Source: Gammaproteobacteria bacterium (GTDB lineage: Bacteria; Pseudomonadota; Gammaproteobacteria; JABABF01). Taken from it: DNA of 64,000 bases. Of this stretch, positions 47,911-64,000 are shown piece after piece. The translations under genes were made by a program, and so were the position numbers. The stretch is from assembly GCA_965237805.1 (NCBI GenBank), contig OZ250153.1, positions 1,504,001 to 1,568,000 of the forward strand, read 5' to 3'. The notes under the pieces were generated by a model. It saw only the letters and a list, made by a program, of their open reading frames with translations, was not told where the DNA came from and made no database searches. How positions within the stretch are numbered: position 1 is the stretch's first letter; every line of letters begins with the position of its first letter.

Positions 47911-48141
47911 ATGGCAGTGCAGAAAGGGCGCAAGAGCAGTTCAAAGCGCGATATGCGACGCTCCCATGATGGCTTGCGGCCACCGACGCTGGCGGTGGAT
48001 CCGCTCAGCGGTGAGCCCCACCGGCGCCATGCCGTCACCGCAGACGGTTTCTACCGCGGGCGACGACTGTTCGAACCGCTGCCGGAGCGCGCCGCCGATG
48101 GCGATGAAGCCGAGCCACAGGAGCATGCCAGCCCCTCTTGA
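47911..48141 (+). CDS. rpmF: 50S ribosomal protein L32
   Basis: [31 protein letters not shown]; AGGAG RBS. Confidence 0.95.
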
Positions 48142-49127: not shown

Positions 49128-49873
49128 GCGGCGACGGCCCGCTGGCGGGACAAGTGGCGCTGGTCACCGGTGCCAGCCGCGGTATTGGCAGTGCCATCGC
49201 CGCACGGCTGGCGGCTGACGGTGCCGTGGTGGTCGGCACTTCGCGCAATGCCTCCGGTGCCGATAGTATCAGCCGTCAGCTGAGCGCTAGCGGTGGCTTT
49301 GGCTTGGTGCTGGATGCCTGCGATGCCGAGGCGTTGCCAGCCGCATTGACAGAGCTCGAGCAACGCGCTGGCGAGGCTCCCAGCATCTTGGTCAACAATG
49401 CGGGCATCACCCGCGACACCCTGTTGCTCCGCATGGGCGAGGCGGCTTGGGGAGAAGTGTTGGAGACCAACCTCAGCGCTGCCTATCGCCTGTGCCGCGC
49501 CATCGCCCGGTCGATGTTGCGCCGCCGAGTTGGGCGCATCATCAATATCAGCTCGGTGGTCGGTAGCGCTGGCAATCCGGGTCAGTCGAACTATGCCGCC
49601 TCCAAGGCAGGGCTGGAAGGCTTCAGCCGGGCGCTGGCCTTGGAGCTCGGCTCACGTGGCATCACGGTCAACGCGGTGGCACCGGGCTACATCGACACCG
49701 ATATGACACGTGCCATGTCGGACTCGGCGGCTCAGGAGCTACGCCAGCGCATCCCGCTGGGGCGACTGGGTGCGCCCGATGATGTGGCCGCTACGGTCGC
49801 CTTTTTGGCTGGTCCCGGCGGTTCCTACATCACTGGTGCCACGCTGCATGTCAACGGTGGACTCCACCTCTAG
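49124..49873 (+). CDS. fabG: 3-oxoacyl-ACP reductase
   Basis: TGASRGIG, NNAGITRD, NYAASK, LHVNGG. Confidence 0.95.
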   Translation: MSGDGPLAGQVALVTGASRGIGSAIAARLAADGAVVVGTSRNASGADSISRQLSASGGFGLVLDACDAEALPAALTELEQRAGEAPSILVNNAGITRDTLLLRMGEAAWGEVLETNLSAAYRLCRAIARSMLRRRVGRIINISSVVGSAGNPGQSNYAASKAGLEGFSRALALELGSRGITVNAVAPGYIDTDMTRAMSDSAAQELRQRIPLGRLGAPDDVAATVAFLAGPGGSYITGATLHVNGGLHL

Positions 49874-49883
49874 CCGCGATGGC

Positions 49884-49912
49884 TTGACTTGAGTGCCGCA
49901 CGGCATTAGTAT
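49884..49912 (+). promoter_or_regulatory. Putative sigma70 promoter upstream of the pilus locus
   Basis: TTGACT-N17-TAGTAT. Confidence 0.5.
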
Positions 49913-50007
49913 TTATCGACCCCAGCTGCGGAATCTTCGTAGATTTTCGTAACAGCGGTGACAGCTACAGTAGCGTTGACAGTCTCGAAAAAGCGGTCAA
50001 AAAGATC

Positions 50008-50892
50008 ATGTCTATAACAGCAAAAAAAGTGGCGATAGAAGCGGTGATATTTGCCACCTTAGAGCGTTGCTGGACTGGCTCTAGAGGCGCTGGCAGTGTG
50101 TTGGCGACGCTTGCTCTCGCAGTCAGTCTCAGCAGCCTCGCCGCCTCGCCAGTAGGGCGTGCGCAGAGCTCCGCGCAGGCTCAAGTGTTCAAGCCGACTT
50201 TGGTGCAGTTCGCACAGGCACAGAGTATCAATCCGGGTGGCTTCACTCCGCCCGGTAGCGCTGCCAGCGGCACGGCGGCCTCCGCTCTGCGTGGCTTCGA
50301 GCAATTGCAGGAATTGCAAGGCATGCTGGAAAAATACAATATTTCCCTGCCGCCCGAATTGCGCTTCTCTCAGGAGTTGCGCACTTTGGCGCAGCAGACC
50401 CAGCTGATTGATGCTCGTATTTCTCTGCTCGAGCGCATTGCCCAACTGACCGGCACTCACCGCGATGTGATGGAGCAGGTGCAGGGTCGGATCAAAAGTC
50501 TGCCACCAGAGGTTTTGGTGCTGATGTATGAGATCGGTGACATCTCCTCAATATTGCGTGCCGGGCGCACGTATTCGCCGGTTCGTAGCGCAACTCTCAA
50601 TGGTGATGCGGCACTAGCTGACGATGATGATGATGTTGCCCAAGAGATTACAGCCGACCAAGCCGGCTTGGCCTTGGTCGACGAATTGGTTAGCGTCCAC
50701 TGGGCTAGCAACTTGAGCGGCGGCGAAGTGGTGCCCGAACAGCCCGTGCGCTTGGTAGCCTCTTTTGGCGGTCAGTACTATGAGATCAAGACTGGCGATC
50801 ATATCGCGGGTTTTGAGATTGGCTTGGCCGACGAGCTCGGTGTTGGTGTTATCGTCTTCCGAGGCGAGGATCGTTTTTCGATGAAGTTCTGA
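50008..50892 (+). CDS. Type IVb pilus biogenesis protein, PilP-like
   Basis: Signal/TM segment, Gln-rich coiled coil, C-terminal EIKTGDHIAGFEI...GV resembling the PilP beta domain; directly before the ATPase as pilP is in R64-type loci. Confidence 0.5.
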   Translation: MSITAKKVAIEAVIFATLERCWTGSRGAGSVLATLALAVSLSSLAASPVGRAQSSAQAQVFKPTLVQFAQAQSINPGGFTPPGSAASGTAASALRGFEQLQELQGMLEKYNISLPPELRFSQELRTLAQQTQLIDARISLLERIAQLTGTHRDVMEQVQGRIKSLPPEVLVLMYEIGDISSILRAGRTYSPVRSATLNGDAALADDDDDVAQEITADQAGLALVDELVSVHWASNLSGGEVVPEQPVRLVASFGGQYYEIKTGDHIAGFEIGLADELGVGVIVFRGEDRFSMKF

Positions 50893-51035
50893 AATCGGCC
50901 ATTTGGACTTGGGCTGGTTTTTGCGGGTGAGCGGTAAACGCCAACAGATTTTTGATGCTGGCTGATGGGGGTGGCTGGTGTCTTTGGGGGCATGCGGGGG
51001 GCACCTTGAATCACTGAGATCCGTGGAGCTGCGTC

Positions 51036-52874
51036 ATGGCTACAAAAGAGCAAGAGCAAGAGCAAGAGCAAGAGCAAGAGCAAGAGACAGGTTTCTTGTC
51101 TCGCCTATTCAGCGGTAGGAGCAATGTCGGTGCCGATAACGATGCCGCCGCACGGGCATCGGGTCCTAGCGAAGGCACCACCGAGGTTGATTTTATCATC
51201 GAGCAGGCCGAATGGCTCGGTGTCGCTCCGATCATAGCGCGCAAAGACCTGCCAGACCAGCACCCGATCAGCTCTGCCCACCCGCAGCTCTACGAGTGGG
51301 CCATGGGTCATCCGGAGTTCCTCTGTCTGTTGTCAGATGGCGTGACGCTGGTCAGCTCGAAACCCTCCCATCCGGCGGTGCAAACGGCCAAGAATATGCT
51401 GGCTAGCATGGGGCGCCAGCCCGTGGTGCGTCCAGCGGTGCAGAACATCGTGCGCCATTTGCGCGACATCATGGTGGCCGAGCCAACGCCGGGGGAGGAG
51501 GGCGCCCGGCAGTTGGAGCAAATCTCCGCCGCCGCTACTGACGTGCAGCGTCTCTTTCACGCCATCGTCGAGGCGGCGCTCAATCGCGGTGCATCGGATA
51601 TCCACATGGAGATGCGCGAGCAGCAGACAAACATCAAGTTCCGCATCGACGGTCGCCTGATTTTGTTCGATACCGTGGGGCGCGATGAGCTGCTGGCACT
51701 GGGGAACTACATGTTCAATGCCGAGGCCAAACGTGGCTCTTTGCAGTTTATGCTGGACAAGCCCTTGCACGGTTCGCTCGATTTCCGCATGGGCACGACA
51801 GTGGTGCCGATCCGTCTCAGCACCGCCCCCGATGTGCGCGGTGTCGATATCTTCCTGCGCGTTTGGCGCCCCAACACCAGCGGTATCAAGATTGAGGAAG
51901 CTGGCTATTCGACCTTGCAGATCTCACTGCTGCAAGAGGCCATGTCTCGTCCCTATGGTGTGATAGTGATGTCTGGCCCCACTGGCTCTGGCAAGAGCAC
52001 ATCACTGACAGCATTGTTGGAGACGGTGGATCCGCAACACAAGATCATCTCACTTGAGGAGCCGGTCGAGCGCATGTTGCCCAATGTGACCCATGTCCCG
52101 ATCGCCATCCATGTCCGTGAGAGCGGCTGGGATGTCCTGCGTGCCTCGCTGAACCGGTGGGACACCAATATCAATTTTCTCGGTGAGGTCAAAGATCGCA
52201 ACACGGCCGAGGCGATCAAGGATTTGGCCACTTCGGGTAAGTTATGCGTGACCACCCTGCATGCTTCCAATGTCTTGTCGATCCCCTCCCGACTCGAGGA
52301 TCTTGGTGTCGAGGCCTCAATGATCTACGATCCGAATTTCCTGATTTGTCTGATCAACCAGCGCCTGTTGCCACAGAATTGTACGCACTGCCGTGTGCCG
52401 TTGGAAAAGCAGGCCGCACGGCTGGATCGCTACACGCTGAATCGCTACAAGAAATTATTCAAGGGCCATGAGAGCGAGGTCTACTTTATGGGACCCGGTT
52501 GCAATCATTGTGATGGTACGGGTATTGCCGGGCGACGCTTGGCGGCCGAGGTGGTCATGCTCGACGATGATGGCCGCACTTTCATTCGCGAACGCGACCA
52601 AATGGGCTGGCGCGCATACCTGTTGGAGCGCGGTTTTCAACCGATCAGCACACATGTGCTGAGATATGTCCTCAGCGGTGATGCCGATCCCGTTGTCGCC
52701 GAACGCGCCGTCGGCTTGCTTGATTCCTCTCACCAAGTACAGTTTGATTACCGATTGCGCCAAGATGCCTTGGATGCCGCTCTCCGGGAGAGTGACACGA
52801 CGGCCCATCGCGATACTACGCTTGGTGCTGGCAAGGATACGGGTGCCGCCACCCGACAGCAGGCGGCCTCTTAG
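51036..52874 (+). CDS. Type IV pilus assembly ATPase (GspE/PilB family, PilQ-like)
   Basis: ASDIH, FRIDG, Walker A GPTGSGKS, LEEPVE, GEVKD, TTLH, QRL, CxxC...CxxC. Confidence 0.9.
   Translation: MATKEQEQEQEQEQEQETGFLSRLFSGRSNVGADNDAAARASGPSEGTTEVDFIIEQAEWLGVAPIIARKDLPDQHPISSAHPQLYEWAMGHPEFLCLLSDGVTLVSSKPSHPAVQTAKNMLASMGRQPVVRPAVQNIVRHLRDIMVAEPTPGEEGARQLEQISAAATDVQRLFHAIVEAALNRGASDIHMEMREQQTNIKFRIDGRLILFDTVGRDELLALGNYMFNAEAKRGSLQFMLDKPLHGSLDFRMGTTVVPIRLSTAPDVRGVDIFLRVWRPNTSGIKIEEAGYSTLQISLLQEAMSRPYGVIVMSGPTGSGKSTSLTALLETVDPQHKIISLEEPVERMLPNVTHVPIAIHVRESGWDVLRASLNRWDTNINFLGEVKDRNTAEAIKDLATSGKLCVTTLHASNVLSIPSRLEDLGVEASMIYDPNFLICLINQRLLPQNCTHCRVPLEKQAARLDRYTLNRYKKLFKGHESEVYFMGPGCNHCDGTGIAGRRLAAEVVMLDDDGRTFIRERDQMGWRAYLLERGFQPISTHVLRYVLSGDADPVVAERAVGLLDSSHQVQFDYRLRQDALDAALRESDTTAHRDTTLGAGKDTGAATRQQAAS
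51048..51086 (+). repeat. Hexanucleotide tandem repeat (GAGCAA)6 encoding (EQ)6E
   Basis: Six perfect GAGCAA units plus GAG directly after MATK. Confidence 0.9.
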
Positions 52875-52956
52875 CATGCGCTGCGTCGCGTGTTGTGAGC
52901 AGCGCGGCGCGGCGCGGCACCGCCCAGACCCAGCCCAGCTTCGCTGAGGCCCGACC

Positions 52957-53994
52957 ATGAGCCTCTACGACAGTTTTAACGACGGCCTGTTGCGCCTGCA
53001 GTTTGGGCGCAAGGCACAGGCCGACTATGTGCGCGCTTTCTTTTCCCTACTCGACGAAGGGGTGCCCCTGCGCGATGCATTGATCAATATCCGTGCCATT
53101 GGCAATCCGGTGGAGCAGATGGTTGCCAAGCGCATGTACCAAGCTTTACGCGCTGGCCAGCCGGTGGCGCGGGGCATGCAAGGCCTGTTCGATCCGGTGG
53201 TTGTGGGGTCGCTGGCGGCTGGTGAGCAGACCCCAAATTTCATCCCCAATGGCTTGCGCATCGCCGATGTGATGGAGAGTGAGCTCGGTGTGTTCGGTGA
53301 GGTGGTAGGCAAGCTGTTGCCACCGATACTCTTTATGGCTCTGGTGTTGGCGATGTTCACCCAGATGCGGTTGCGTTTCTATCCGCTGATCCTGCATATC
53401 AAGCCGATAGAGCAGTGGACTTTGCCGGGTCGGATCGTCTACCACACTGGCGACTTCCTCGCCTCCCACTGGCTGGTAGTCATCATTGGTATCGTTGTGG
53501 GCATAGCGTTGTTCGGCTCTTTTATCACGCGCTATACGGGGGTCGGTCGCCAGTTGCTCGATCGGATGCCGCTCTTCGCGCTCTACCGGGAAAATACCGC
53601 GGCCAAGAGCCTCGAGTCGATGGCGCTGGTGTTGTCTTCCGGCATGGAGATGCGCAATACCTTGCGCCTGATGCACGACAGCTCGCCGCCGCTGGCACGG
53701 CTCTACCTGCGCAAGATGATGGGGCGTCTGCAAGAGGGTGGCACACTGGCCGATGTCATTGATGTCGGCTTTCTCGGCAGAGAAGAGATCTCCTTGTTGA
53801 AGTTGCTGGCCCAGCACCGGGGCTTCATGGATGCTATGCAGCGCGTCGCGCGCAAGAGTGGCGAAGCCGTGCGACGGCGGGTGCGGCTCACCGTGCGGCC
53901 GCTTCAAGTCATCCTGTTTGGCGTGGTCGGCTTGGGCTACGGTCTGATGATCTTTGCCGTCTATACCAATACCCAGAACTTGGCCTCGTTCTGA
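52957..53994 (+). CDS. Pilus inner membrane platform protein (GspF family, PilR-like)
   Basis: LLDEGVPLRDAL, AAGE, three TM segments, second cytoplasmic repeat LSSG...L; follows the ATPase. Confidence 0.8.
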   Translation: MSLYDSFNDGLLRLQFGRKAQADYVRAFFSLLDEGVPLRDALINIRAIGNPVEQMVAKRMYQALRAGQPVARGMQGLFDPVVVGSLAAGEQTPNFIPNGLRIADVMESELGVFGEVVGKLLPPILFMALVLAMFTQMRLRFYPLILHIKPIEQWTLPGRIVYHTGDFLASHWLVVIIGIVVGIALFGSFITRYTGVGRQLLDRMPLFALYRENTAAKSLESMALVLSSGMEMRNTLRLMHDSSPPLARLYLRKMMGRLQEGGTLADVIDVGFLGREEISLLKLLAQHRGFMDAMQRVARKSGEAVRRRVRLTVRPLQVILFGVVGLGYGLMIFAVYTNTQNLASF

Positions 53995-54019
53995 ATTTGG
54001 CATCGAGGGGTGGCAGGGC

Positions 54020-54049
54020 TTGACGCGCTGGCCAAGTGGATGTTACAAT
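54020..54049 (+). promoter_or_regulatory. Putative sigma70 promoter of the major pilin
   Basis: TTGACG-N18-TACAAT with extended -10 TG. Confidence 0.55.
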
Positions 54050-54145
54050 TGCCGACAGAAGTTGATTTCTGGCACACACGATCACGATCAGACCACCTCA
54101 AGATCCTTAAATCTTAAATACTGTAAGCCAACGGGGGCAGCACAT

Positions 54146-54787
54146 ATGACAACCAGATTCAATAACAGCTTGCAAGAAGCACGGTATTCGCGCGGTGCCA
54201 CCCTGATTGAACTCTCGGTGGTGGTGGTGATCATCGCATTGATCGTGGCGGGTGCCTTGGTCTCTTTCAGACAGGTGCAGCGCTCCCAGACCATTACCGA
54301 GGCTGCGAGCATCAATTCGCAGATTGTCTCGGCGGTCGCACGCATCTCCGGTGCCGTCGGCCCCTCTGGTTCTGGATTGATCGCTTGCGTGACTAATTGT
54401 GAGATGCAGGGAACTGCGGCGGTGATTATCGCCCAGACGCTGGGCAACACCGGTTTGGAAGAAAAAGCAAACAACTGTTGTGCTCTCATCTCAGGCAGCA
54501 ATCCCGGTGCCCAAACTGGTTTCACGAATGCCAATTCTTGGGGCGGAAATATCGTCCTCTATGCATACAATGCACGCTCTATCATCGTCCGCCATACCGC
54601 TGTGCCAGACTATGCGCTCACATCGCTGACCAACGCTTTGGAATTGGGGGCGCAGTCCATTGTGACCAGCGACGCTCAGCTGACATCGCTGACTAGTAGC
54701 AGCGCGCTTAACTACACGGGGTCTAATTACGCTAGCGGCCTATATAATGGCACAGCTGGTCATGTCGACGGGCTCTATCAGTTCTGA
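54146..54787 (+). CDS. Major type IVb pilin (PilS-like)
   Basis: 17-aa leader ending SRG|ATLIEL followed by a hydrophobic helix; mature length about 196 aa; NSWGGNI motif; ends in YQF. Confidence 0.8.
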   Translation: MTTRFNNSLQEARYSRGATLIELSVVVVIIALIVAGALVSFRQVQRSQTITEAASINSQIVSAVARISGAVGPSGSGLIACVTNCEMQGTAAVIIAQTLGNTGLEEKANNCCALISGSNPGAQTGFTNANSWGGNIVLYAYNARSIIVRHTAVPDYALTSLTNALELGAQSIVTSDAQLTSLTSSSALNYTGSNYASGLYNGTAGHVDGLYQF

Positions 54788-54940
54788 AGCAGGCCTTGCC
54801 AGCTCGCGGTCGGTGCCGCACTGAGCCACCACTTTAGCGCTGTCTGTAGTCTGTATCAGCCTATCGGCTTGGCTTGAGGGCGCACTTGTTGCCCAGCGGC
54901 ATAGAGCGGGCTGTTTTGAGCCTGAGTTGGGGTTCCTGTG

Positions 54941-55777
54941 ATGGCTGAGGCGACCCAGTGGCCGGGGGCGTTCTCGCTGTGGTTGCTCGAATGGCAGCTG
55001 TTGCTCCAAGCGCAGCCTTGGCTGGTGCTGGTGCTGGCCGCGTTGGCTGGTGCCTGTGCTGGTAGTTTTCTCAATATGATGGTGTACCGGCTACCCCTGA
55101 TGGCAGAGCGCAGCTTGGCTTTGGCACGCGGTGTGGCACCACAGCAGCTGCCTGGTGGCGAGGCCCCCTACAACTTGGCCGTGCCCCGTTCGCACTGTCC
55201 GCATTGTCGGCAGCCGATTCCACTGTGGTACAACATCCCGCTGCTGAGCTATCTGTGGTTGCGCGGGCGTTGTGCAGCCTGTGGTGTAGCCATCCCGCCG
55301 CGCTATCTGTGGCTGGAATTGTCGACGGTGGTACTCTTTGTGCTCGCCGCGCAACGCACCAGCGGCGCACTGATGCCGCTGCTCGCCCTGTGGCTGGCGC
55401 TGGGTACATGGTTAGCAGCGCTGTGCCTCGCGCTGGAGCGGGACTACTTGCCGACAGCCATCGCTTGGTTGCCGTTGTGGCTTGGCCTGTTGCTGGTGGC
55501 GGGTGATCCCGCCCCCGCCGCCCCCGCACTGTGGGCAGCGGCGGTGGCGGCGGGGCTGGCGGCGTTGTGGCTACGGTGGCTACAACGCCACCCAGCCTCG
55601 CCAGAGCTGCTGGCGTTGTCAGCCGCCGCTGGGGCTTGGGGCGCTTGGCTCGGGCTCGCCTGTCTCGTCGTGCTGTGGGCTGTGGCCGCCCTGTGGGCGC
55701 GCTGGCGAGGAGCCCCCGCCACCGCCTCAGTGCCGTTGTTGGCACTGGCTGGTATTGCTGCGGCGCTGCTCGCCTGA
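54941..55777 (+). CDS. PilD-like protein: intact N-terminal Cys (methylase) domain, degenerate A24 peptidase domain
   Basis: GSFLN...RLP, PRSHCPHC, NIPLLSYLWLRGRCAAC; no recognisable catalytic Asp motifs downstream. Confidence 0.82.
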   Translation: MAEATQWPGAFSLWLLEWQLLLQAQPWLVLVLAALAGACAGSFLNMMVYRLPLMAERSLALARGVAPQQLPGGEAPYNLAVPRSHCPHCRQPIPLWYNIPLLSYLWLRGRCAACGVAIPPRYLWLELSTVVLFVLAAQRTSGALMPLLALWLALGTWLAALCLALERDYLPTAIAWLPLWLGLLLVAGDPAPAAPALWAAAVAAGLAALWLRWLQRHPASPELLALSAAAGAWGAWLGLACLVVLWAVAALWARWRGAPATASVPLLALAGIAAALLA

Positions 55778-55947
55778 ATCGATACCGCACGGCCAGCTCG
55801 GCCGCAATGCTTTCGGTCGCCAGCATGCATCGGTTATACTCCAGATCGCATTGGACAGTTTTTTCCCTGTGCCCATTGCGGTGGCAAGTGGCGGCGGCAA
55901 GTGGTCGCGAAAACCGCCATCCAGAGCGAGTTGCTGTGTCCCGAACC

Positions 55948-56682
55948 GTGCCGAAAAAACCACCACCCCATTCCCGCCACCCGGCGGCATTCGCGCCGCG
56001 CCACCCTGCGCTTGCTTTCACCCTGCTTGAAATGTCGATCGCGTTGACGGTGATCGTCAGCGCGATCCTCTATTCTGCGCTCTACTTGCGCGACGCATCG
56101 CGTCAATATGCGTTGGGGGGGCGAGCTTTTGCCACCATGCAGGAGATCGCACTCAGCGCGGACACTTTTTACTGGCAGAACTGCAGTGCTATCCAGCAGG
56201 CATTCGCTGCCAGCGGTGCACTCGTGCCCAGGGTGGTGGTGGCCAGCAATAATGCGCTGCTCAGCGCCCATCCCACCCTGCGCATGACGCTTCGTGGCAA
56301 CCAAAACTCGGTGAATCCGCTGAGCGGCACCACTTATGATGTCTATTATGAGCGCCACCGCAGGGATGGCGTGGTGGACAGCTATGGCATCACCATTCCG
56401 CCAACAGATGTGGTCTACCGTGTCGTGCAGTTCCCGGCACCGCCCGACCGCTCGGTGGCCGATGCCGTGGCGGACTATCAGCGCTATATGGATACCGCAC
56501 AACTGGTGGTGACAGCGGACAGTGACCGCACCGTTCTCTACCTCGCCCAAGTGCAGCGCAGTCCCATCGCCGACGATGTCTCCCTGCAGGCTTTTACCGC
56601 GGGGGCGCGCAGAATTGCCGCCAGCAGCTCGGCCTCGGTGTCGATCAACCCAGCCTGTGCCGCCACTGCCCCGGTGCGGTAG
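55948..56682 (+). CDS. Minor pilin-like protein
   Basis: A|FTLLEMSIALTVIVSAIL class III signal-like motif, NPLSG, two Cys; start uncertain (GTG 55948 chosen, downstream of TATACT at 55835). Confidence 0.65.
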   Translation: MPKKPPPHSRHPAAFAPRHPALAFTLLEMSIALTVIVSAILYSALYLRDASRQYALGGRAFATMQEIALSADTFYWQNCSAIQQAFAASGALVPRVVVASNNALLSAHPTLRMTLRGNQNSVNPLSGTTYDVYYERHRRDGVVDSYGITIPPTDVVYRVVQFPAPPDRSVADAVADYQRYMDTAQLVVTADSDRTVLYLAQVQRSPIADDVSLQAFTAGARRIAASSSASVSINPACAATAPVR

Positions 56683-56736
56683 CTGCTGGCACAACCCACA
56701 TGTCGCAGGCAATTTTCCATATCTTGGCCCGCGTGT

Positions 56737-56745
56737 TGTTATACT
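56737..56745 (+). promoter_or_regulatory. Putative extended -10 promoter for the giant pilin genes
   Basis: TGTTATACT in an AT-rich spacer about 50 nt before the start. Confidence 0.4.
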
Positions 56746-56797
56746 GTGGTTTAATGCACGAAGTGGATTTTAGCGATACGACGAGGCTTGGCACGTG

Positions 56798-59449
56798 ATG
56801 CTCTCGACGCTTACTGACGATCTGCAACAGCACGTTTCTATGACTGTGGCTGCCAGTGGTGCTGCCAGCACAGCGCAACAATGGCACAAGTCCACTCGGC
56901 GGTGCCTGCCCGCTCACCCGCCGCGCCGTCGTCGTCGGGGAATCACACTGATCGATATGTCGGTGCTGCTGACATTTGCCGCCATCGTGGTGGGTGTGGC
57001 GGCGATGGAGCGGGTGCGCGGCCAAGCTCGTGATTTCGCCATCTCCAGCGGTTTGGAATTGCGTGAGGTGCTGGATGCGGCGATGGTCTACCGCTACCAG
57101 ACCGGTGAGTGGCCACTGAATCAATGCTCGCGTTCCTATGCCCAAGGTCTGGGCAATGACTGCAATGGCGATGGCAGTGCGGACAGCGGTGATCTCAGCG
57201 GCCTGACACAGCTGGTGGAGGTGGGGCGTCTGCCGGACTTACAGCGCCACCGGAACAACCAGGGGCGCGACGGCCAATGGATCTCGCTACAGCCATGGGA
57301 TGCTGCCACCGCTGCCGTCTCTACTAACTCGGCGGACATCGCCTCGGTGCTGCGTTCCGACAGTCTGCGCATGGAGACCGTGGTGGGCTCGAATCTCAGT
57401 GCCTATGCGAACTACATCGCCCGCTTGGTGCCGGGTACTGAGGTTGAGCAACGGGGTGCTGATACCGTCCTTGTCACCACCCTCCAGTTCGGCGGCTACA
57501 GCGCCATTCTGCTCTCGCAGCTGGGCCTTAGCACCGGCTACTTCAATTCCCTGCGGGTCCCAGAAGTGGTGCTGAGTCGGCGGGTGATATTAGATGCCCC
57601 GCAACCCGGTCTGCTACGGATACGCCCCTATATAGAGACCGATCCATCGCTGCTGGGGTCTCACCCCCGCCGGGTGCGCGTCAACACAAGCGGTGAGCGT
57701 CTCTCCGATCAGTCTACGGCTGCCCTGGCTGATGGTGATGACGATCCTCTTGTCATTACGAATGAAACTGGTGAACTCTATACTTCAGAGATTTCGATCA
57801 ACTTGGCTGATGCCTCTCGGCAGGCCGTCAGAATCAGTCCCTCACCAGCGTTGGTCTTCGGTGTCGCGGCCTTGGAGGACAGCGTGGGTATGCCGAGCAG
57901 CGACAGCGGTGACCGCGTCGAACTGCGGGCAATTTCGGGTAATCGTCTGCAAATTGTCGAGCGTGACACCGCCGTTTTCATGCCCGATGGCACCACGCCG
58001 CTGCGCCAAGACAATTTCGATGGTCGTCCGTTACGCAAACTCTATCGCACCGCAACTCATTTTCTCAGCTTCGATTATGTGAACAACTCCAATGAGACTT
58101 ATTACTATCTCAGGCAAACCAATCGCGCCACTCAAAGCTATGAGCCGCGACCGCACTTCATCGATTCCGGTAGCTTTTCTGGCTCGGCCTATGATGGCTT
58201 ACCACCTTATTTGATTACCGCACAGATTGATGGCGGTTATCCTGGTCGGAGATTGTTAGGCGCGACGCGCACCGCGCTGATGTTCGCTGGCATCTATGAC
58301 CATCCCGACACCAGCCCGGCGCTCTTTCCCAATGGTGCCCCCGCTGGCACCTCTGCTCTCACCGCCACGGCCAGGGAGGGGCATGCTCGCATTATCTTGG
58401 CTCATAGGGTTGGTCAACATTCATATATACAAGCTGTACGCCGCGTGGTTGGAGGTGCCCTTAACAACCTAACGGACATTATGTTTAACATGGATCTGTG
58501 GGGATCTATGGAGCCTGCTTTCGCTGAGCAGCTGTTCTTGGACGACGCGCCGGCGGTGCAAAATGCCGATATCCCCGGTCGCTCCTACGATAGAGCAGTC
58601 TACAGCCGTACAATCGATGGTCTGTTCGTGATATGCCACCTGCCGGAGCTGTTGACAGCGAGCGGCAATACCGATTGCGGTAACCCGCGAGCTGGTGCGA
58701 CAGGGCCGATGGATGTGCTCGGCAATCAGACCGGTGATCTGGGCTGGGTCATCCCGCGGCTCAGCGTCTATTTCAGCGCTACCGGAGGCTATATGAATCT
58801 CCACCACGTATTTAAGGACATTAACAGCGATACGAACGATCGCTATGGAGAAATCGAGTTGTGGTCCGACGGAGATAGTGGCAATCAGGCGGGTCGCACG
58901 GTGCAGCGGGAGCCCGGACGGCACCGTCGCGTCTGGATCAGTGGTAGATTCGGGCTGCGCATTGGTGACAACGATGATGCTTACCAAAACTACCAAGATT
59001 CCCGGGCACTGCGCGTCCGCCAGCTTGATGTGGGCATTGGGACAGCATATAGATTTGCCCTCCACCCTTACATCACCCCCGAGGGCGCCTCGAATGCGCT
59101 CTTTCTAGATGGCAACACGGAGGGCGTTTCTTTTGTGGGCATCGGTGTCGCTGGCCAAACCGAAACCGCGATCATCGATTTTGGCGGCTCCACTGACGGT
59201 GCCCGCACCCCGCTGAGGCTGCAGGGTAGCCCGCAGATCCTCGTCACAGACCCCAGCACCGGATCGCCTTCGTTGAACTTGTGGTACGGGGCGAGTGACC
59301 ACCCGGTTGTTGACGATAGCCGCGTGCCCTTCATGAATGTCAGGAATCTCGCGGTGGAGTCACTGAATGCTTTGGACTGTTTTAAGTGCGCTGGCGGTAC
59401 CGCCAGCGACTGCCCTCATGTGAGCTATACTGATTATGGTTGCCCCTAA
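56798..59449 (+). CDS. Giant pilin-headed protein 1 (putative tip adhesin)
   Basis: RRRRRG|ITLIDMSVLL, ELREVLDAAMVYRYQTGEWPL, DCNGDG loop, Cys-rich C-terminus. Confidence 0.7.
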   Translation: MLSTLTDDLQQHVSMTVAASGAASTAQQWHKSTRRCLPAHPPRRRRRGITLIDMSVLLTFAAIVVGVAAMERVRGQARDFAISSGLELREVLDAAMVYRYQTGEWPLNQCSRSYAQGLGNDCNGDGSADSGDLSGLTQLVEVGRLPDLQRHRNNQGRDGQWISLQPWDAATAAVSTNSADIASVLRSDSLRMETVVGSNLSAYANYIARLVPGTEVEQRGADTVLVTTLQFGGYSAILLSQLGLSTGYFNSLRVPEVVLSRRVILDAPQPGLLRIRPYIETDPSLLGSHPRRVRVNTSGERLSDQSTAALADGDDDPLVITNETGELYTSEISINLADASRQAVRISPSPALVFGVAALEDSVGMPSSDSGDRVELRAISGNRLQIVERDTAVFMPDGTTPLRQDNFDGRPLRKLYRTATHFLSFDYVNNSNETYYYLRQTNRATQSYEPRPHFIDSGSFSGSAYDGLPPYLITAQIDGGYPGRRLLGATRTALMFAGIYDHPDTSPALFPNGAPAGTSALTATAREGHARIILAHRVGQHSYIQAVRRVVGGALNNLTDIMFNMDLWGSMEPAFAEQLFLDDAPAVQNADIPGRSYDRAVYSRTIDGLFVICHLPELLTASGNTDCGNPRAGATGPMDVLGNQTGDLGWVIPRLSVYFSATGGYMNLHHVFKDINSDTNDRYGEIELWSDGDSGNQAGRTVQREPGRHRRVWISGRFGLRIGDNDDAYQNYQDSRALRVRQLDVGIGTAYRFALHPYITPEGASNALFLDGNTEGVSFVGIGVAGQTETAIIDFGGSTDGARTPLRLQGSPQILVTDPSTGSPSLNLWYGASDHPVVDDSRVPFMNVRNLAVESLNALDCFKCAGGTASDCPHVSYTDYGCP

Positions 59450-61448
59450 GATCGCGCCGGGCGAGCATCGCCGCGGCGCGACGCTGTTTGAGATGGCCAT
59501 TGTGGTTGCTCTGATCGGCGCTATAGCCAGCCTGCATTTCGAGCGCGAGCAGGCAGCGGTGCGGCAGCAGATTGTCGGCAAAATGGCCGCCGAGCTGCAG
59601 CGGGTCTTGGATGCCGCCATGGCCTATCAGCTAGACCACGGCGAATGGCCGCTGGACAGCTGTAGCGCAGCGGCCTATGCCGCTGGCAGCCTGCGCGATT
59701 GCAATGGTGATGGGGACAGGCAATCAGACGATATCAATGGTGTGCGGCGGCTAGTCGACTCGGGTTATCTGCATGCTGGCGGCATTGCGATAGACGATGC
59801 TGGCACCCGCAACCTTGCCACTGCCCGCACGCTGATGGGGGCATCGCTCGTCATGCATCCGGTGCAGGAGATCGTGCCCGCCGCAGCCACCGATCTCGGT
59901 AGTGGGCGCTCGCTCTACCACACCACCGCCTATTGGCAGAGCTATCTGCCCGGCACGCTGGCGGCGACCAACAGCTCGCCTACGCTTGCGCCCGGGCTGC
60001 GGGTGCGCTATGCCTTGCCCCGAAGCGCCGGTTGGTCTTGCTACGCCCGCGAACTCGCTCACCATATCATCGGTGCCAAGCCGATCCGGCTCGCAGATCC
60101 GCTGCTGACGCCGCCCGCACCCACCGAACTCTCGCAGGAGCCGCAGCTGCCCATCAGTTTGGGCAATTGTCGGCAGCTGAATGCTGCGGGGGATGCCGAT
60201 GAGGCCTTTGCGGTTGAGGTGTTGCTGCGCCGCTGGCAGGAGTCGACGGCGACTGTCATGATTCCCTCCATTGACGGTCGCTTGCATGTCTCAGGACTAC
60301 GTCTGGGTGGGTCAACTGGCGTCCCGATGTGGCTGGAGGCAGCGGCTAGCGGTGAATTGCGGTTGCGCGCTGCCGTGCGCACCGCCAGCGATTTGCCGAC
60401 CACCGATGCGATGATTCAATTCGCCAAGGCCGACAACCATCCGACGGCACCGCGCGGCGGCATCGTCACCCTGCGCGGGGTCGACGAGGGGCATTTGGGC
60501 ATCATGTCGGGCTATGTGCCGGGTGGAGGGGATGCCGTGCGCCCTACCATCGACAGTGTGGGCAGCGATCATCGGCACTTGTCCTCGCTGGTCTTTGAGC
60601 GTCCCGACGGCAGCCACATTGGCATGCTGAGTGGCGATTTGCTGGGCTATGACAGATTCGTGTCCCCCGATGCGGCGATCTTTGGGGGCACTGCCGTGAC
60701 GCTGTCGGTTGGTGATGCGGCGCGCGCCAGCCGACACGCCGGTTGGCGTGCCGAGCTGCTGCATTACCCGGCCGGTCAAGTGCATGGCCTCGATGCTTCC
60801 CACTCGCTGATACAGCCGGATACCACTGGTCTGCGTCTCTACAATGTGGTCAAGTTTGAATATGCGGGTGTGCGCATCTACGGTGGGCGGATGACGATCA
60901 TGCCGGGCAATACTTTCTACGCCGGATTTAACTCAGGCGCACAACGTTACTTCACCATGGACTCCGCCGATAACCCCCCCGTCTCCGCTGAGACCGAGGC
61001 TTATCAACATCCTGGAGAGGGTGTTCAAGTCAATCGATTGACGGTCTACAGAGATTTGGTCTACGATCCGCCTGATACAACATTGCTTTCTGCCGGTGTG
61101 GTGCGGCCCGCGGGGCTCGGTGGCTCTGCCAAGCGCGTACCGCTGGTCGGTGCTGGTGCACCACACGACAACTATCCAGCTAATTTCATCATGCGCCCTG
61201 CTACCGGCATCTACCTGCGAACCAACGGTCACCGTCTCACACTGGATCTCGTGGGAAAGAATCTAGAGCTGCACGAGGCCTCTATCAGTCTGCACGGTCT
61301 CGACGCCACTCGCATCGACTTCGCTGTCACCGGTGCCGATGCACCCTTTGAGCAGTCTGCTGCCACGGTTCAAGTGCTCAACGGTGGCATCCAGGATCTG
61401 CGCACCCTCCGCTGTGCTGGCTCCGCTACGCAATGCCCCACCCCATGA
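59436..61448 (+). CDS. Giant pilin-headed protein 2 (putative tip adhesin)
   Basis: HRRG|ATLFEMAIVV, ELQRVLDAAMAYQLDHGEWPL, DCNGDG loop, C-terminal LRCAGSATQCP. Confidence 0.7.
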   Translation: MVAPKIAPGEHRRGATLFEMAIVVALIGAIASLHFEREQAAVRQQIVGKMAAELQRVLDAAMAYQLDHGEWPLDSCSAAAYAAGSLRDCNGDGDRQSDDINGVRRLVDSGYLHAGGIAIDDAGTRNLATARTLMGASLVMHPVQEIVPAAATDLGSGRSLYHTTAYWQSYLPGTLAATNSSPTLAPGLRVRYALPRSAGWSCYARELAHHIIGAKPIRLADPLLTPPAPTELSQEPQLPISLGNCRQLNAAGDADEAFAVEVLLRRWQESTATVMIPSIDGRLHVSGLRLGGSTGVPMWLEAAASGELRLRAAVRTASDLPTTDAMIQFAKADNHPTAPRGGIVTLRGVDEGHLGIMSGYVPGGGDAVRPTIDSVGSDHRHLSSLVFERPDGSHIGMLSGDLLGYDRFVSPDAAIFGGTAVTLSVGDAARASRHAGWRAELLHYPAGQVHGLDASHSLIQPDTTGLRLYNVVKFEYAGVRIYGGRMTIMPGNTFYAGFNSGAQRYFTMDSADNPPVSAETEAYQHPGEGVQVNRLTVYRDLVYDPPDTTLLSAGVVRPAGLGGSAKRVPLVGAGAPHDNYPANFIMRPATGIYLRTNGHRLTLDLVGKNLELHEASISLHGLDATRIDFAVTGADAPFEQSAATVQVLNGGIQDLRTLRCAGSATQCPTP

Positions 61449-63535
61449 GACAGCGCCGAGCTCAGGCCATGTCCCCGAGCTGCGACACGCAGCCCCGTCG
61501 TCGCGCCTCGGCAGCGTGCGGGGCGACTTTGGTCGAGCTATCCCTGGTGGTGACGGTGTTGGCGCTTTTCTTTGCCCTGGATCTGCAGTCGCGCCGAGAG
61601 GATCGGCTGTTCTATCTCGCCGACTTGGCGGCCGCCGAGCTGAATGAGATCGTCTCGGCCTCGCTGTCCTATAGGACCAACACCGGCAAGTGGCCACTGG
61701 ATCACTGTGCTGAAGACTATCTGTTGCCCCCGTCGCCGCCCTCTCCCCTGAGTAGCAACTGCGACGGCGATAGCGGAGGCTTAATCGACGAAAACGACCT
61801 CTCCGGTGTGCGGCGTCTCTTCAGAGAGGGCTATATTCCGCTGAGCGATTGGCGCACCGAGCTGTCATCGACCGATGCCCCCATGGGCGGTAGCCGAGCC
61901 CTGTCGCTCAACTCCGTGCTCGGTGGTCGCCTGTTATTGCAGCCAGTGCCGACGACGGGGACGACTTCTTGGACCTTGCTGCCCACCGGTATGTCATATG
62001 CAGCTCTCGCCACCAGTATCGACAGTCCCGCCGAGCTCGATGCCCTCGTCTCCCGCCAAGGTTTGCGCCTGTGGATGGCACTGCCTGTGCCCTTTGCCTG
62101 CATGGCGCGCTATATCTCCGGCTTGGTGCCGTCTTCGCGCGTCCTCGTCGACGGCACGCCCATCGTCGACGGCATGCCGCTCGCCGGCATGCGTACCATC
62201 GCTGGCGTGCAGACCGCCTCGTGTCCCCAAGCTGGCAATGTCAGCGTTGAAATCCTGCGTCGCAACGCGCCCTATACCCGCTCGGAGGATGCCTTGGTGG
62301 CCGGGGGTGTGGATACCGATGTCGAGCTGGGGACGGTACTGCGGGTTGAACGCTTGATTATCGGCGACAATGTCAGCCTTGATGCCCCCGGTAACCGCAT
62401 CTTTTTCGAGGCGGAGAACACTTATAGCCCCTACTATGGGGTATTGCGTTTGGCTCCCTACGGCCTCAGCTCTACTGAGGCCACGACCGTGGAGACTGCC
62501 ATACAATTCGCACGTTCGTCCGTGGATACAACAGCGCCATCGGGCGGTTTGGCGGTGTTGGCTGCGCGCCCTGGAGGCGGCCCCCAAGCGACAGAATGTT
62601 GCGTTGAGCACTACCGCCTGGTCCCCGGCGACAGCACATCCCCCGCCTCCGGCATAGACTACTTCCCCTTCGGTGTGGCACCCTATAGTCCGCTGGATCG
62701 CAATTGGCAGAACAATGTGCTGATCATGCGTCCCGGTGCGCGTGCCGATCTGGCCACCAATACCGAGCTCGAGCTGCAAGATGCCAACACCCGTGAGATT
62801 GCACTCAGCTTGGAGATGCTGTCTAAATATCGCCAATACCCCAGCTCGATCGACGCGGGACAGCGTGCTTTCGGGCAGCCGCAGGGGCTGACTTACCACG
62901 GTGCCAGATCGGTCTCCGGGCGGGCTTCTGGTGTCGCTTTTGCTGTTCCAAGAGACTCGGTACAGACTGACATAGAGCTGGTGATCGGCGGTCTACCTGT
63001 GGCGAGTGGTGCCAATCAGGGTCTGCGTCACCGCAGCGCCTTCGACTTGTACAACAATCCGGCGGTACTCATGGGGCCGAGCACGCTATTGCGATACGAC
63101 CATTCCTATGTGGCCAACCTTTTCCTTGGCGACACCGACCTCATTCTCGGCTACGGACCGCGTTATTGGCGGTGGGATCCCTTGGGTTATCGAGATGCCG
63201 CGACGCCCTACCAGACCGCCTTGGACACACCACCGGATACGATTTGGTTGGATGAGGATTATGGGTTGATCAATTTCCAGCATAGTTTTACCAATATATA
63301 TTTTCAACGGCCCACCCGTCTGCTGGGCGTGGATTTCATCGACACAGGATACGCTTCGCTTCACCTCAATGATTCGATCCCACTGAAGATCGGGCGGGAA
63401 AACAGCGGTAGTAGCGCCACCCACACGCTGGCGAGTGATGCCATCATTGAGGGACGTAATATCACCGATCTTTCGTGCCTGCAGTGCACCGACAGCACTC
63501 GATGTCCCGCCGATGCCTCGGCCACTGCCTGTTGA
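61445..63535 (+). CDS. Giant pilin-headed protein 3 (putative tip adhesin)
   Basis: CG|ATLVELSLVV, ELNEIVSASLSYRTNTGKWPL, NCDGD loop, C-terminal CLQCTDSTRCP; ATGA overlap with the previous gene. Confidence 0.7.
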   Translation: MRQRRAQAMSPSCDTQPRRRASAACGATLVELSLVVTVLALFFALDLQSRREDRLFYLADLAAAELNEIVSASLSYRTNTGKWPLDHCAEDYLLPPSPPSPLSSNCDGDSGGLIDENDLSGVRRLFREGYIPLSDWRTELSSTDAPMGGSRALSLNSVLGGRLLLQPVPTTGTTSWTLLPTGMSYAALATSIDSPAELDALVSRQGLRLWMALPVPFACMARYISGLVPSSRVLVDGTPIVDGMPLAGMRTIAGVQTASCPQAGNVSVEILRRNAPYTRSEDALVAGGVDTDVELGTVLRVERLIIGDNVSLDAPGNRIFFEAENTYSPYYGVLRLAPYGLSSTEATTVETAIQFARSSVDTTAPSGGLAVLAARPGGGPQATECCVEHYRLVPGDSTSPASGIDYFPFGVAPYSPLDRNWQNNVLIMRPGARADLATNTELELQDANTREIALSLEMLSKYRQYPSSIDAGQRAFGQPQGLTYHGARSVSGRASGVAFAVPRDSVQTDIELVIGGLPVASGANQGLRHRSAFDLYNNPAVLMGPSTLLRYDHSYVANLFLGDTDLILGYGPRYWRWDPLGYRDAATPYQTALDTPPDTIWLDEDYGLINFQHSFTNIYFQRPTRLLGVDFIDTGYASLHLNDSIPLKIGRENSGSSATHTLASDAIIEGRNITDLSCLQCTDSTRCPADASATAC

Positions 63536-63555
63536 GTGGCTTGCACCGAGCTGCC

Positions 63556-63584
63556 TTGCACTGGCTCTGTTCTTGTGATATTCT
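63556..63584 (+). promoter_or_regulatory. Putative sigma70 promoter
   Basis: TTGCAC-N17-TATTCT with extended -10 TG in an AT-rich spacer. Confidence 0.45.
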
Positions 63585-63799
63585 AGAGGAATACACGTTT
63601 TAGTTTGTTTGCAATATCGTCTAACAGGCCATTGTTCGCTGAGAATTTTAGCGCCGTTGCCGAGCAAACGGACAGGGTGGCGGCTGTTCAGATCGATTCG
63701 CAGCTGCTCAGCGTGGCCTTGGTTTCAAAACGCAGGTGGCTATTTGGAGGTGTTGGGGTGGTAGGGCTTGGGAGACAGCGGATCATGCAGGGGGAGCCT

Positions 63800-64000
63800 A
63801 TGCATAGCCGGTGGTGGAGATTGACAGCCGCACCGCGCCCGTTGTGGTCGGGTTCGGGCGTGTTGCTCGCCACGGCCACGGTCGTTCTGATGCTCGGGGG
63901 CTGTTCCTCGCTCGGCTCTGGGGTCGGATTGTGGAATCGTGCCACAACGCCCAGCACTGAGACTGATGCCGTCGCGCTGAACAGCTTGGCATCGGTCGCC
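63800..64000 (+). CDS. Lipoprotein, truncated by the window edge (candidate PilN-like secretin or PilL)
   Basis: Not in the ORF track. GGGGAG RBS, then MHSRWWR...VLLATATVVLMLGG|CSS lipobox; frame open to the end. Confidence 0.55.
   Translation, partial: MHSRWWRLTAAPRPLWSGSGVLLATATVVLMLGGCSSLGSGVGLWNRATTPSTETDAVALNSLASVA

Follow-up and report, generated by a model that had tools for sequence, protein, structure and literature searches.

The DNA analysed here is a stretch of 64,000 nucleotides (the window; G000:C1:1504001-1568000) from the genome of an uncultured gammaproteobacterium (G000), which is a single contig (OZ250153.1) of 1,725,584 bases and 97% complete. From position 50008 onwards, all long frames of the forward strand form one cluster, which appears to encode a type IVb-like pilus and starts directly after fabG (fabG ends at 49873, and the first gene, A, starts at 50008). 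An initial annotation of this DNA had placed the cluster there, and its gene order and coordinates were borne out by our reading of open reading frames, Pfam and NCBIfam families. The genes of its parts list are there as listed, but the lipoprotein gene with which the list closed (J) is not the end of the locus, which runs past position 64000. When the downstream contig was read for a secretin and PilO, a secretin gene (L) and a gene for a bitopic protein in the PilO position (M) were found. The locus as a whole has 13 genes (A to M) in 19.7 kb, all on the forward strand and separated by short gaps or overlaps, and ends at the extrapolated window coordinate 69738, 5.7 kb beyond the window. We consider it likely that this is a complete and intact chromosomal type IVb-like pilus locus, carried by a bacterium with a 1.73-Mb genome, in which the parts have the roles proposed below.

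The core of the machine is recognisable by homology. Gene B (51036..52874) encodes an assembly ATPase of 612 residues from the GspE/PilB superfamily (PF00437, E 6e-60), and gene C (52957..53994) encodes an inner-membrane platform protein of 345 residues with two PF00482 stretches (E 1.9e-16), 78% identical to its orthologue in a genome of the same genus (G001). Gene L, which lies outside the window (G000:C1:1569806-1571527), encodes a lipoprotein secretin of 573 residues (lipobox LSGC; PF00263, E 1.2e-6). Its best NCBIfam match is PilN (TIGR02520, E 4.7e-37, 127.7 bits with the cut-off of 287.65 unreached), and its sole match to the PDB by sequence is BfpB (E 9.3e-20). When the 13 locus proteins were compared with 13 R64-type proteins by phmmer, the only significant pairs were B with PilQ (E 2.3e-40), C with PilR (E 3.5e-8) and L with PilN (E 1.2e-23). 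From homology, B is predicted to be the assembly ATPase, C the platform protein and L a lipoprotein secretin of the PilN/BfpB kind. All three score far below the cut-offs of the type II secretion system families (B as GspE, 181.9 bits against 630.25; C as GspF, 41.4 against 424; L as GspD, 18.1 against 351), and B is also far below that of PilB (163.8 bits against 675.65). The genome has four PF00437 ATPases, namely GspE, a PilB/TfpB-like ATPase and two type IVb-like ATPases, with a fifth, weak match (E 2.9e-4) at 347.9 kb in an 889-residue frame; no retraction ATPase of the PilT/PilU type was found among the PF00437 matches of the whole genome. The tetracysteine of B (C449, C452, C489 and C492) is invariant in 30 members of its clade. 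The 5' end of gene B contains a perfect repeat of a GAGCAA-type hexamer (6.8 copies, window 51046-51086), which encodes (EQ)n; the repeat is in frame, and a change in its length would affect the N-terminal tail only.

Gene D (54146..54787) encodes the major pilin, with the cleavage site G|ATLIELS. Major pilins of type IVb pili have a leader of about 15-30 residues, a variable residue other than Phe at position 1 and a mature part of about 180-200 residues. The initial annotation had described a long-leader pilin with a first residue other than Phe, and D fits this description: counted from the ATG at 54146, its leader has 17 residues, Gly stands at -1, Ala at +1 and Glu at +5, and the mature part has 196 residues. 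D matches the family PF07963 (E 2e-4), with GspG at E 0.067, and a PDB sequence search with it found nothing beyond pilin N-terminal helices. G001 has two copies, 49% and 36% identical to D. Homology suggests that D is a type IVb-style major pilin. These pilin traits, the PilN/BfpB-like secretin and the compactness of the locus (13 co-oriented genes in a single cluster) agree with the claim of a chromosomal type IVb-like pilus, while the length of the leader, the Ala at +1, the low PilB score of B and the lack of a PilT-type ATPase in the genome set the system apart from type IVa pili. Gene F (about 55936..56682, the start codon being uncertain) encodes a minor pilin with the cleavage site A|FTLLEMS, a mature part of 221 residues and a match to TIGR02532 at E 0.017. 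It has Ala at -1 and Phe at +1, and its orthologue in G001 (46% identical) also has Ala at -1.

Four further genes encode predicted envelope proteins. Gene A (50008..50892) encodes a secreted protein of 294 residues in the PilP/BfpU position directly 5' of the ATPase gene, with a hydrophobic Sec signal segment at residues 28-46, no lipobox and an orthologue in G001 that is 51% identical. That A is PilP-like, as had been proposed, holds for its position but not for family membership: A matched no Pfam or NCBIfam family (Pfam at E up to 10), and its scores in the ESM Atlas were 0.82-0.84, under the lead threshold of 0.9, with one of the clusters auto-named PilP family. Gene J (63605..64000 and then off the window; G000:C1:1567605-1569278) encodes a TcpQ-like/SPOR lipoprotein of 557 residues, in which a lipobox (LGGC), in keeping with the lipoprotein of the initial annotation, and a C-terminal SPOR domain (PF05036, E 8.2e-5) were found. 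TcpQ (PF10671) matches no J other than the orthologue in G001 (E 2.8e-4, below the cut-off). This orthologue, at 350 residues, is largely without the linker rich in K, E, A and R that in our J is encoded by overlapping tandem repeats with periods of 15-42 (L001 1565-1977; extrapolated window 64565-64977). Gene K (G000:C1:1569281-1569787) encodes a lipoprotein of 168 residues (lipobox LAAC), of which the C-terminal part, residues 93-166, is SPOR-like (32% identity and E 4.4e-6 to the SPOR region of J from G001). K and the middle part of J matched no Pfam family at E up to 10. Gene M (G000:C1:1571666-1573738) encodes a bitopic protein of 690 residues with a transmembrane segment at 299-317, for which only three homologues were found. 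In the ESM Atlas, 28 of its 30 matches were clusters in which 38-43% of the members bear PAP_PilO, at scores of 0.91, which we take as a lead only; a PDB sequence search with the profile of M gave nothing, and an AlphaFold2 model of M from four sequences (mean predicted local distance difference test score, pLDDT, 37.7) was not used for a fold search. Position, topology and weak matches suggest that A in the periplasm and the bitopic M form an alignment subcomplex, as PilP/BfpU and PilO/BfpC do, and that J and K are secretin-associated lipoproteins whose SPOR domains tie the outer-membrane part of the machine to peptidoglycan. No lytic transglycosylase was found among the Pfam and NCBIfam matches of the locus proteins, and J and K would stand where R64 and the bundle-forming pilus (BFP) have this enzyme.

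Three genes encode giant modular minor pilins: G (56795..59449; open reading frame of 884 residues, cleavage site G|ITLIDMS), H (59436..61448; 670 residues, G|ATLFEMA) and I (61433..63535; open reading frame of 700 residues, G|ATLVELS). Like F, they all carry class III signal peptides, with leaders of 32-49 residues in G, 14 in H and 18-30 in I. The start of H overlaps the end of G by 14 nt and the start of I overlaps the end of H by 16 nt, which suggests that their translation is coupled. The three proteins are paralogues: common to all of them are an N-terminal domain of about 130 residues, which includes a conserved Cys pair, conserved positions dotted over the sequence and a C...CP motif at the C-terminus. 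In both genomes of the genus, G has Asp instead of Glu at +5; GspK is likewise without Glu at this position. The giants evolve fast, with dN against G001 of 0.47-0.57 compared with 0.17 for the ATPase (identity 39% for G and 46% for I), and their rough ratio of nonsynonymous to synonymous divergence (dN/dS) is 0.22-0.33, with dS saturated.

What the giants carry behind their pilin domain matches no Pfam or NCBIfam family, and G as a whole matched none. A profile made from six sequences (our three and those of G001) was searched against 1.84 billion representative proteins and gave 537 matches at E at most 0.001, only 14 of them at 1e-10 or better. Five of these 14 are rows of the query itself and seven are fragments, which we assigned to orthologues of G (P0128, P0129, P0130, P0132), H (P0126, P0131) and I (P0127); P0131 and P0127 are N-terminal pieces of 82 residues. 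Apart from one more fragment of G (P0137), the weaker matches span the N-terminal pilin helix only, so that, as far as this search reaches, the C-terminal modules are orphans outside the genus. A PDB sequence search with the profile likewise found only pilin N-terminal helices. In the AlphaFold2 model of H, residues 15-270 are confident and form a long N-terminal helix and a beta-sheet, that is, a pilin fold, whereas residues 271-670 have pLDDT below 35, and structural matches of that part are meaningless. When the model was searched against 48,161 PDB representatives, the best matches were the CofA pilus (Z 7.3, 167 residues, root-mean-square deviation 5.3), TcpA (Z 6.7, 158 residues, 4.4), PilA1 of C. 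difficile (Z 6.5) and CofB (Z 6.1, 157 residues, 4.2); nearly all of the top 22 rows were pilins, at middling Z values. By Foldseek, CofB was the sole match at E at most 0.001 (E 7.8e-4). We suggest that G, H and I are modular, each with a pilin domain of about 250 residues and of type IVb-like fold, followed by an orphan module of 400-600 residues. Modular pilins are a large and widespread group, numbering over 1,200 proteins in 264 architectures, many modules being without database signatures (PMC8179133).

How the giants may work together is suggested by a relative. In another genome of the class (G126, C1 ~261200-283800), the platform gene and genes for small pilins are followed by 12 pilin-headed genes for proteins of 430-560 residues, which make up four tandem a-b-c cassettes: between cassettes each type pairs with its own kind, at 21-40% identity over stretches longer than 200 residues, and the order is kept in four of four. 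The pilus machine that these cassettes follow has an ATPase from the clade of B. That the whole triplet was duplicated argues that the three pilins act together. The first gene of the cassettes has Glu, His, His and Gln at +5, so that three of the four are without Glu. One of the c-type proteins of G126 matches Peptidase_S74, the intramolecular chaperone of phage tail fibres (E 1.1e-4, 22.9 bits, cut-off 22). We also predicted a complex of the pilin domains of G, H and I, which gave an ipSAE of 0.40, compared with 0.00 for the best of three controls, with run agreement of at least 37% and partner pLDDT of at least 65. The support is weak: of 80 solved complexes, 58 reach the mark used for such predictions, as do 2 of 110 mismatched pairs, and at an ipSAE of 0.60 or lower only 7 of the 80 do so, together with both of the passing mismatches. 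As pilin helices pack alike in all solved filaments, the pass may reflect this generic packing and not specific binding.

We argue that F, G, H and I most likely prime pilus assembly, and that G, H and I would sit at the pilus tip as a three-part complex displaying fast-evolving adhesin modules. Precedents exist for tips of either composition: CofB is a homotrimeric initiator at a type IVb tip (PMC6048534), while the complexes of GspIJK and PilIJK are heterotrimeric and three genes of this sort belong to BFP (PMC13533445). The statement of the initial annotation that type IVb systems carry one tip pilin is therefore not a rule, as BFP has three minor pilins (PMC13533445). A different arrangement, in which the giants are alternatives to one another as tip adhesins and each makes a homotrimer by itself in the manner of CofB and TcpB, so that the cell has three interchangeable tips, seems to us rather doubtful but deserves the most attention among the alternatives. 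It would agree with the solved type IVb tips, which are homotrimers of a minor pilin (PMC6048534, PMC13533445), with the shared architecture of the three paralogues and with CofB being the best Foldseek match of H. Against it, the three types in G126 are duplicated only as whole a-b-c cassettes, and the first gene tends to be without Glu at +5 (G in both genomes of the genus and three of four cassettes in G126); this points to fixed and different positions in one complex. The coupled translation suggested by the overlapping starts and, weakly, the prediction of the hetero-complex also speak for the three-part tip.

The locus has its own PilD paralogue, gene E (54938..55777), which matches PF06750 (A24_N, E 2.7e-28) and aligns end to end with the canonical PilD of the genome at 34% identity over the aligned columns. 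PF01478, the other peptidase family, was detected neither in E nor in its orthologues P0275 and P0276 (78% and 70% identical), whereas both families are recorded in the other 117 of the 120 listed homologues. We aligned these three locus-type sequences with eight canonical ones, including the PilD of this genome and the peptidase of the G126 locus. The latter is canonical, and its gene lies on the opposite strand. All eight canonical sequences keep the first aspartate (I/S-D-x4-5-LP-D/N) and the second motif G-x-G-D-F/V-K. In all three locus-type sequences the first site reads LALERDYLPT or LVLEHDWLPT, in which the Asp is replaced by Ala or Val, and the second reads SPELLAL, SLELLAL or EIELLAL instead of GxGD; in E itself, IDxxxxLPD has become LALERDYLPT and GxGDFKLLA has become SPELLALSA. 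Motif 2 is flanked by shortened segments and the FGP motif has disappeared, while four N-terminal cysteines (C87, C90, C112 and C115) are invariant in all 11 sequences. According to mutagenesis of TcpJ and PilD, the two aspartates are reportedly the essential catalytic residues. Divergence from G001 (dN 0.24, rough dN/dS about 0.20 with dS saturated) indicates that E is kept by purifying selection and is not drifting.

As E is without both catalytic aspartates, cleavage of the prepilins would fall to the canonical PilD: PF01478 matches the genome at a single place, 579.8 kb, adjacent to pilC, and this one enzyme is probably the one that processes the pilins of the locus. E may have retained a role in N-methylation or as a scaffold. 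In the model of the type IV filament superfamily, pilD is mandatory but treated as a "loner" (PMC6668835). Could E still be an active prepilin peptidase by way of displaced acidic residues, so that the locus would be self-sufficient in pilin processing? The Asp of ERD/EHD and the Glu of P/L/I-E-L-L are conserved in three of three orthologues, E is under purifying selection, and type IVb loci normally have a peptidase of their own. We nevertheless think this unlikely, as both sites that are kept in eight of eight canonical sequences have been replaced, PF01478 is recorded in 117 of the 120 homologues but in none of the locus-type three, and the surroundings of motif 2 are eroded. A limited literature search for PilD paralogues without the catalytic aspartates found no relevant paper, which does not imply that none is in print.

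The 120 best homologues of ATPase B that were listed start with a block of proteins (P0001-P0087) of 37-74% identity and E at most 6.5e-99, all of them metagenome proteins and from Gammaproteobacteria where a source is named; after two partial rows, the identity drops to 25-37%. In a tree of 62 rows (quick search, rooted on BfpF with its very long branch, and with no TcpT, CofH, MshE or Tad references), B falls in a clade of 25 rows (support 99) within a clade of 38 rows of uncharacterised metagenome proteins (support 92). This larger clade stands apart from the R64/BfpD group (18 rows, support 80) and from the GspE/PilB group (5 rows, support 100). It groups with GspE/PilB at a weak support of 86, and joining it to R64/Bfp was not rejected (approximately unbiased test, p-AU 0.28). 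Among the references used, then, B is placed outside every characterised clade, in agreement with what had been proposed. Published trees place type IVb pili at the base of the bacterial clade, a place that "generic" systems sometimes occupy (PMC6668835). A scan of contigs with the ATPase alignment, aimed at synteny, was set aside: it picked up generic Walker-region patterns, just three of its 80 retained loci (L020, L021 and L022) are members of the clade, and little was learned from it about synteny.

The 38-row clade includes the ATPase of a second, smaller type IVb-like system of the same genome, which lies outside the window (G000:C1:1355900-1364200) and is without giants. It consists of a 453-residue protein, a lipoprotein secretin (PilN, E 1e-37), proteins of 407 and 305 residues, a 501-residue ATPase that is 31% identical to B, a 344-residue platform protein and two to three small pilins. 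The same type of ATPase is also found in G001 and in two sister genera (G002 and G003).

It has also to be considered whether the machine is mainly a secretion device, resembling a type II pseudopilus or the toxin-coregulated pilus (TCP) and CFA/III, with the giants as piston tip or cargo. TCP and CFA/III export TcpF and CofJ. Type IVb pili are known to secrete proteins (PMC6048534, PMC10120004), the NCBIfam scores place B at a similar distance from GspE (181.9 bits) and PilB (163.8 bits), and its clade stands beside GspE/PilB in the tree, if with the weak support of 86. Against this, the genome already has a GspE over the equivalog cut-off (658 bits against 630), adjoined by GspD and GspF, and the major pilin is type IVb-like, with 196 mature residues and a GspG match of E 0.067. 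There is no candidate cargo gene in the locus, and the class III signals of G, H and I mark them as filament subunits and not as Sec-exported cargo. We regard a mainly secretory function as improbable.

The locus is shared within the genus. In G001, it occurs as a whole at the same place after fabD-fabG, with 13 of 13 proteins matched at 39-78% identity, syntenic and intact, in line with the conservation in relatives that was looked for. In the two sister genera, the query B found no ATPase of the locus type, only that of the second system at 33-34% identity, and both keep fabD-fabG-acpP-fabF at the site, with two extra open reading frames in between in G003. In our genome, fabD-fabG lies at window 48138-49873 and acpP at G000:C1:65303-65527 (65 kb), so that the fab cluster is split where the locus lies. 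Among 399 other scored genomes of the class, an ATPase at E at most 1e-95 was found in three (G056, 50% identity; G126, 39%; G221, 39%). The closest outside the genus among the genomes sampled is that of G056 (G056:C1:84925-89559), where a 298-residue protein, an ATPase (50% identical, with an in-frame TGA), a platform protein and a 190-residue pilin are followed by two rpoD-like genes. In a metagenome genome of Pseudomonadales (L022 10323-11360), a C-terminal ATPase fragment of 345 residues, 48% identical, has no other pilus genes around it and looks like a remnant.

Acquisition of the locus by the genus is plausible, and so is its "domestication" as the initial annotation had it: the locus occurs in this genome and G001, was not found with this query in two sister genera and is unremarkable in GC content. 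The lower GC noted earlier is real against the 14 kb upstream (0.58-0.62 compared with 0.63-0.70 in 2-kb bins), but genome-wide the locus is no outlier: its 59.8% (genome, 61.6%) falls at the 16th percentile among windows of 20 kb, and we rejected GC as a sign of transfer. Two PF00589 matches lie in the genome, at 327 kb and 1484 kb, and none inside the window. No match to PF03135 (VirB4) or to PF03432, the one relaxase family searched, was found anywhere in the genome (97% complete), no shufflon in the locus and no tyrosine recombinase in or near it. As far as PF00589, PF03135 and PF03432 go, this agrees with the claim that integrase, relaxase and type IV secretion genes are missing. The single tRNA gene in the window is at 7888. 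The genes upstream of the locus are housekeeping genes (an rpsA-like gene for S1, a pseudouridine synthase, an S49 peptidase, yceD, fabD and fabG), and downstream it is bounded by a convergent gene for a short-chain dehydrogenase/reductase and a P450 gene. These data support the view that the locus belongs to no recognisable integrative and conjugative element (ICE) or plasmid, and the flanking sequence shows no ordinary pil operon of that kind. At 2.3 kb 3' of the locus lies an open reading frame of 967 residues (L001 9088-11991; extrapolated window 72088-74991), which matches no Pfam or NCBIfam family and is found in the same genus only (G001, 51% identity; no match in G002-G004).

A small genome of 1.73 Mb and the reduced versions in relatives (four genes in G056, where the ATPase match has an in-frame TGA, and the ATPase fragment of L022) could suggest that the genome is shrinking and that the locus in it is a remnant undergoing decay, with the degenerate E as the first sign. 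We find this very unlikely: none of the 13 reading frames is interrupted, not even the three of 2.0-2.7 kb, and all 13 are conserved in G001 at a rough dN/dS of 0.10-0.33 (dS saturated), E itself at about 0.20. That the locus is an ordinary conjugative thin pilus of the R64, PAPI-1 or ICE type, stranded in the chromosome or carried by a mobile element, can hardly be right: its P-Q-R-S-U-V order does resemble R64 and the best plasmid-record matches of B are R64-type PilQ adjoining PilP, but these are only 27-29% identical, B is not nested in R64/Bfp, VirB4 and the PF03432 relaxase are lacking, the two tyrosine recombinases lie elsewhere, there is no shufflon and no PilV match beyond the signal peptide, and the flanking genes are housekeeping genes.

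Several observations weigh against the picture of a type IVb-like pilus with a three-part tip and a PilD paralogue relieved of proteolysis. ATPase B is not nested in the R64/Bfp group of the tree, and its nearest solved relatives by sequence are PilF (E 1.8e-44) and GspE (E 5.5e-40) and not BfpD (E 2.7e-27). The roles of A, K and M are inferred from position and topology only: phmmer of A, J, K and M against R64-type proteins gave E values of 0.01 or worse, and hhalign of the M family against R64-type PilO gave a probability of 0.1%. The same comparison of the giants with R64-type PilV aligned only 34 columns of the signal region at a probability of 4%, and when G, H and I were compared with a, b and c of G126 with the N-terminal helix removed, nine of nine pairs had a probability of 3.5% or less. 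With CofB and TcpB, the type IVb tips that are known, being homotrimeric (PMC6048534, PMC13533445), the giants might also work singly. In E, an Asp is still present four residues downstream of the lost first site, and a conserved Glu adjoins the lost second one, so that a residual or shifted protease activity may persist. Finally, a search of sequencing runs found no RNA run with the locus; two runs of one sample contain the stretch and may be its source.

The core machine itself is ordinary and the system less exotic than the initial annotation had proposed. What had been called an unusual parts list is largely an R64 set in permuted order, of which the secretin and the proteins in the PilO, PilL and PilM positions lie within the 5.7 kb past the window; the giants, the degenerate E and the SPOR lipoproteins without a transglycosylase do remain unusual. 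Judged from the sequences, the new details would be a machine from a clade that is uncharacterised among the references used, a permuted operon with SPOR lipoproteins instead of a transglycosylase, a trio of giant orphan modular pilins, and a PilD paralogue that has lost its catalytic aspartates. The most likely use of the pilus is attachment to a surface, a partner or a host.

Beyond this, we put forward a more far-reaching view only tentatively. The locus could represent a distinct, uncharacterised branch of type IV filaments, situated between type IVb pili and type IVa pili/type II secretion systems and confined to uncultured Gammaproteobacteria, most of them with small genomes. It would be marked by a tip and initiation complex of three different giants, encoded as an a-b-c cassette that is single here, was multiplied to four in a relative and would serve adhesin variation, and in this genus the PilD of the locus would have become a protease-dead methyltransferase or a prepilin chaperone, with cleavage borrowed from the housekeeping PilD.

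To our knowledge, enteric pathogens and conjugative plasmids account for almost all type IVb pili known. A complete chromosomal relative under selection, in an uncultured and genome-reduced environmental lineage that devotes about 1% of its genome to it, would extend this range. If the tip is a heterotrimer of giant modular pilins, it would bridge the homotrimer model of CofB/TcpB and the heterotrimer model of GspIJK/PilIJK. By multiplication of the cassette, adhesins could possibly be varied without a shufflon, the giants' C-terminal modules are candidates for new binding folds, and the PilD paralogue could separate a role in N-methylation or as a chaperone from the role as a protease.

For comparison with known systems, we read the R64-type pil region of an E. 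coli IncI1 plasmid and bfpA-L on pMAR2 of enteropathogenic E. coli. The R64 order is PilL (TcpQ family)-PilM-PilN-PilO-PilP-PilQ-PilR-PilS-PilT (transglycosylase)-PilU (peptidase)-PilV. By position and topology, genes A to M would correspond to P-Q-R-S-U-(minor pilins)-L-M-N-O, with the L-M-N-O block moved behind the pilins. The likeness lies in two series, one that leads from a small periplasmic protein through ATPase, platform, major pilin and peptidase to a large minor pilin, and the block of a lipoprotein, a small lipoprotein, a lipoprotein secretin and a bitopic protein. The order is not permuted in the G126 system (an STN-like protein, a secretin, proteins of 435 and 186 residues, ATPase, platform, pilins) or in the second system of our genome (1356-1362 kb), and both support the reading that the locus has been permuted. 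Unlike R64, the locus has no PilT transglycosylase, no PilI, PilJ or PilK and no shufflon or recombinase (Rci). It has three giants instead of one PilV, without detectable homology beyond the signal peptide (none of G, H and I gave a match to PF04917, Shufflon_N, at E up to 0.1), and E has an A24_N domain that is absent from R64-type PilU and has lost the aspartates. The locus is also chromosomal, with no conjugation genes found by PF03135 and PF03432, and its ATPase is only distantly related to PilQ.

BFP shares with the locus a series that consists of the secretin, the bitopic BfpC, the small BfpU, the ATPase and the platform protein, and has three minor pilins (BfpI, BfpJ and BfpK). It differs in possessing the retraction ATPase BfpF, the transglycosylase BfpH and, with BfpP, an active peptidase; at 162-183 residues its minor pilins are small, and BfpD is more distant from B than PilF or GspE is.

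The giants resemble the minor pilins CofB of CFA/III and TcpB of TCP, which are large and modular, with a pilin domain and beta-rich C-terminal domains, sit at the tip and prime assembly (PMC6048534). CofB and TcpB each come from one gene for a homotrimeric minor pilin (PMC13533445), whereas our locus has three paralogues of 670-884 residues and the small F. In having three different, adjacent minor pilins, the trio is closer to GspI-J-K and PilI-J-K, for which an initiation complex at the tip has been proposed (PMC13533445). Here, though, all three are giant, no sequence homology to these proteins was shown, and the member without Glu is encoded by the first gene and not the last. A pilin module fused to a bulky extra module on the filament is also seen in PilB and PilC of Streptococcus sanguinis (PMC8179133); the modules of G, H and I differ in matching no family and no protein outside the genus, and in forming a conserved trio within a type IVb-like locus.

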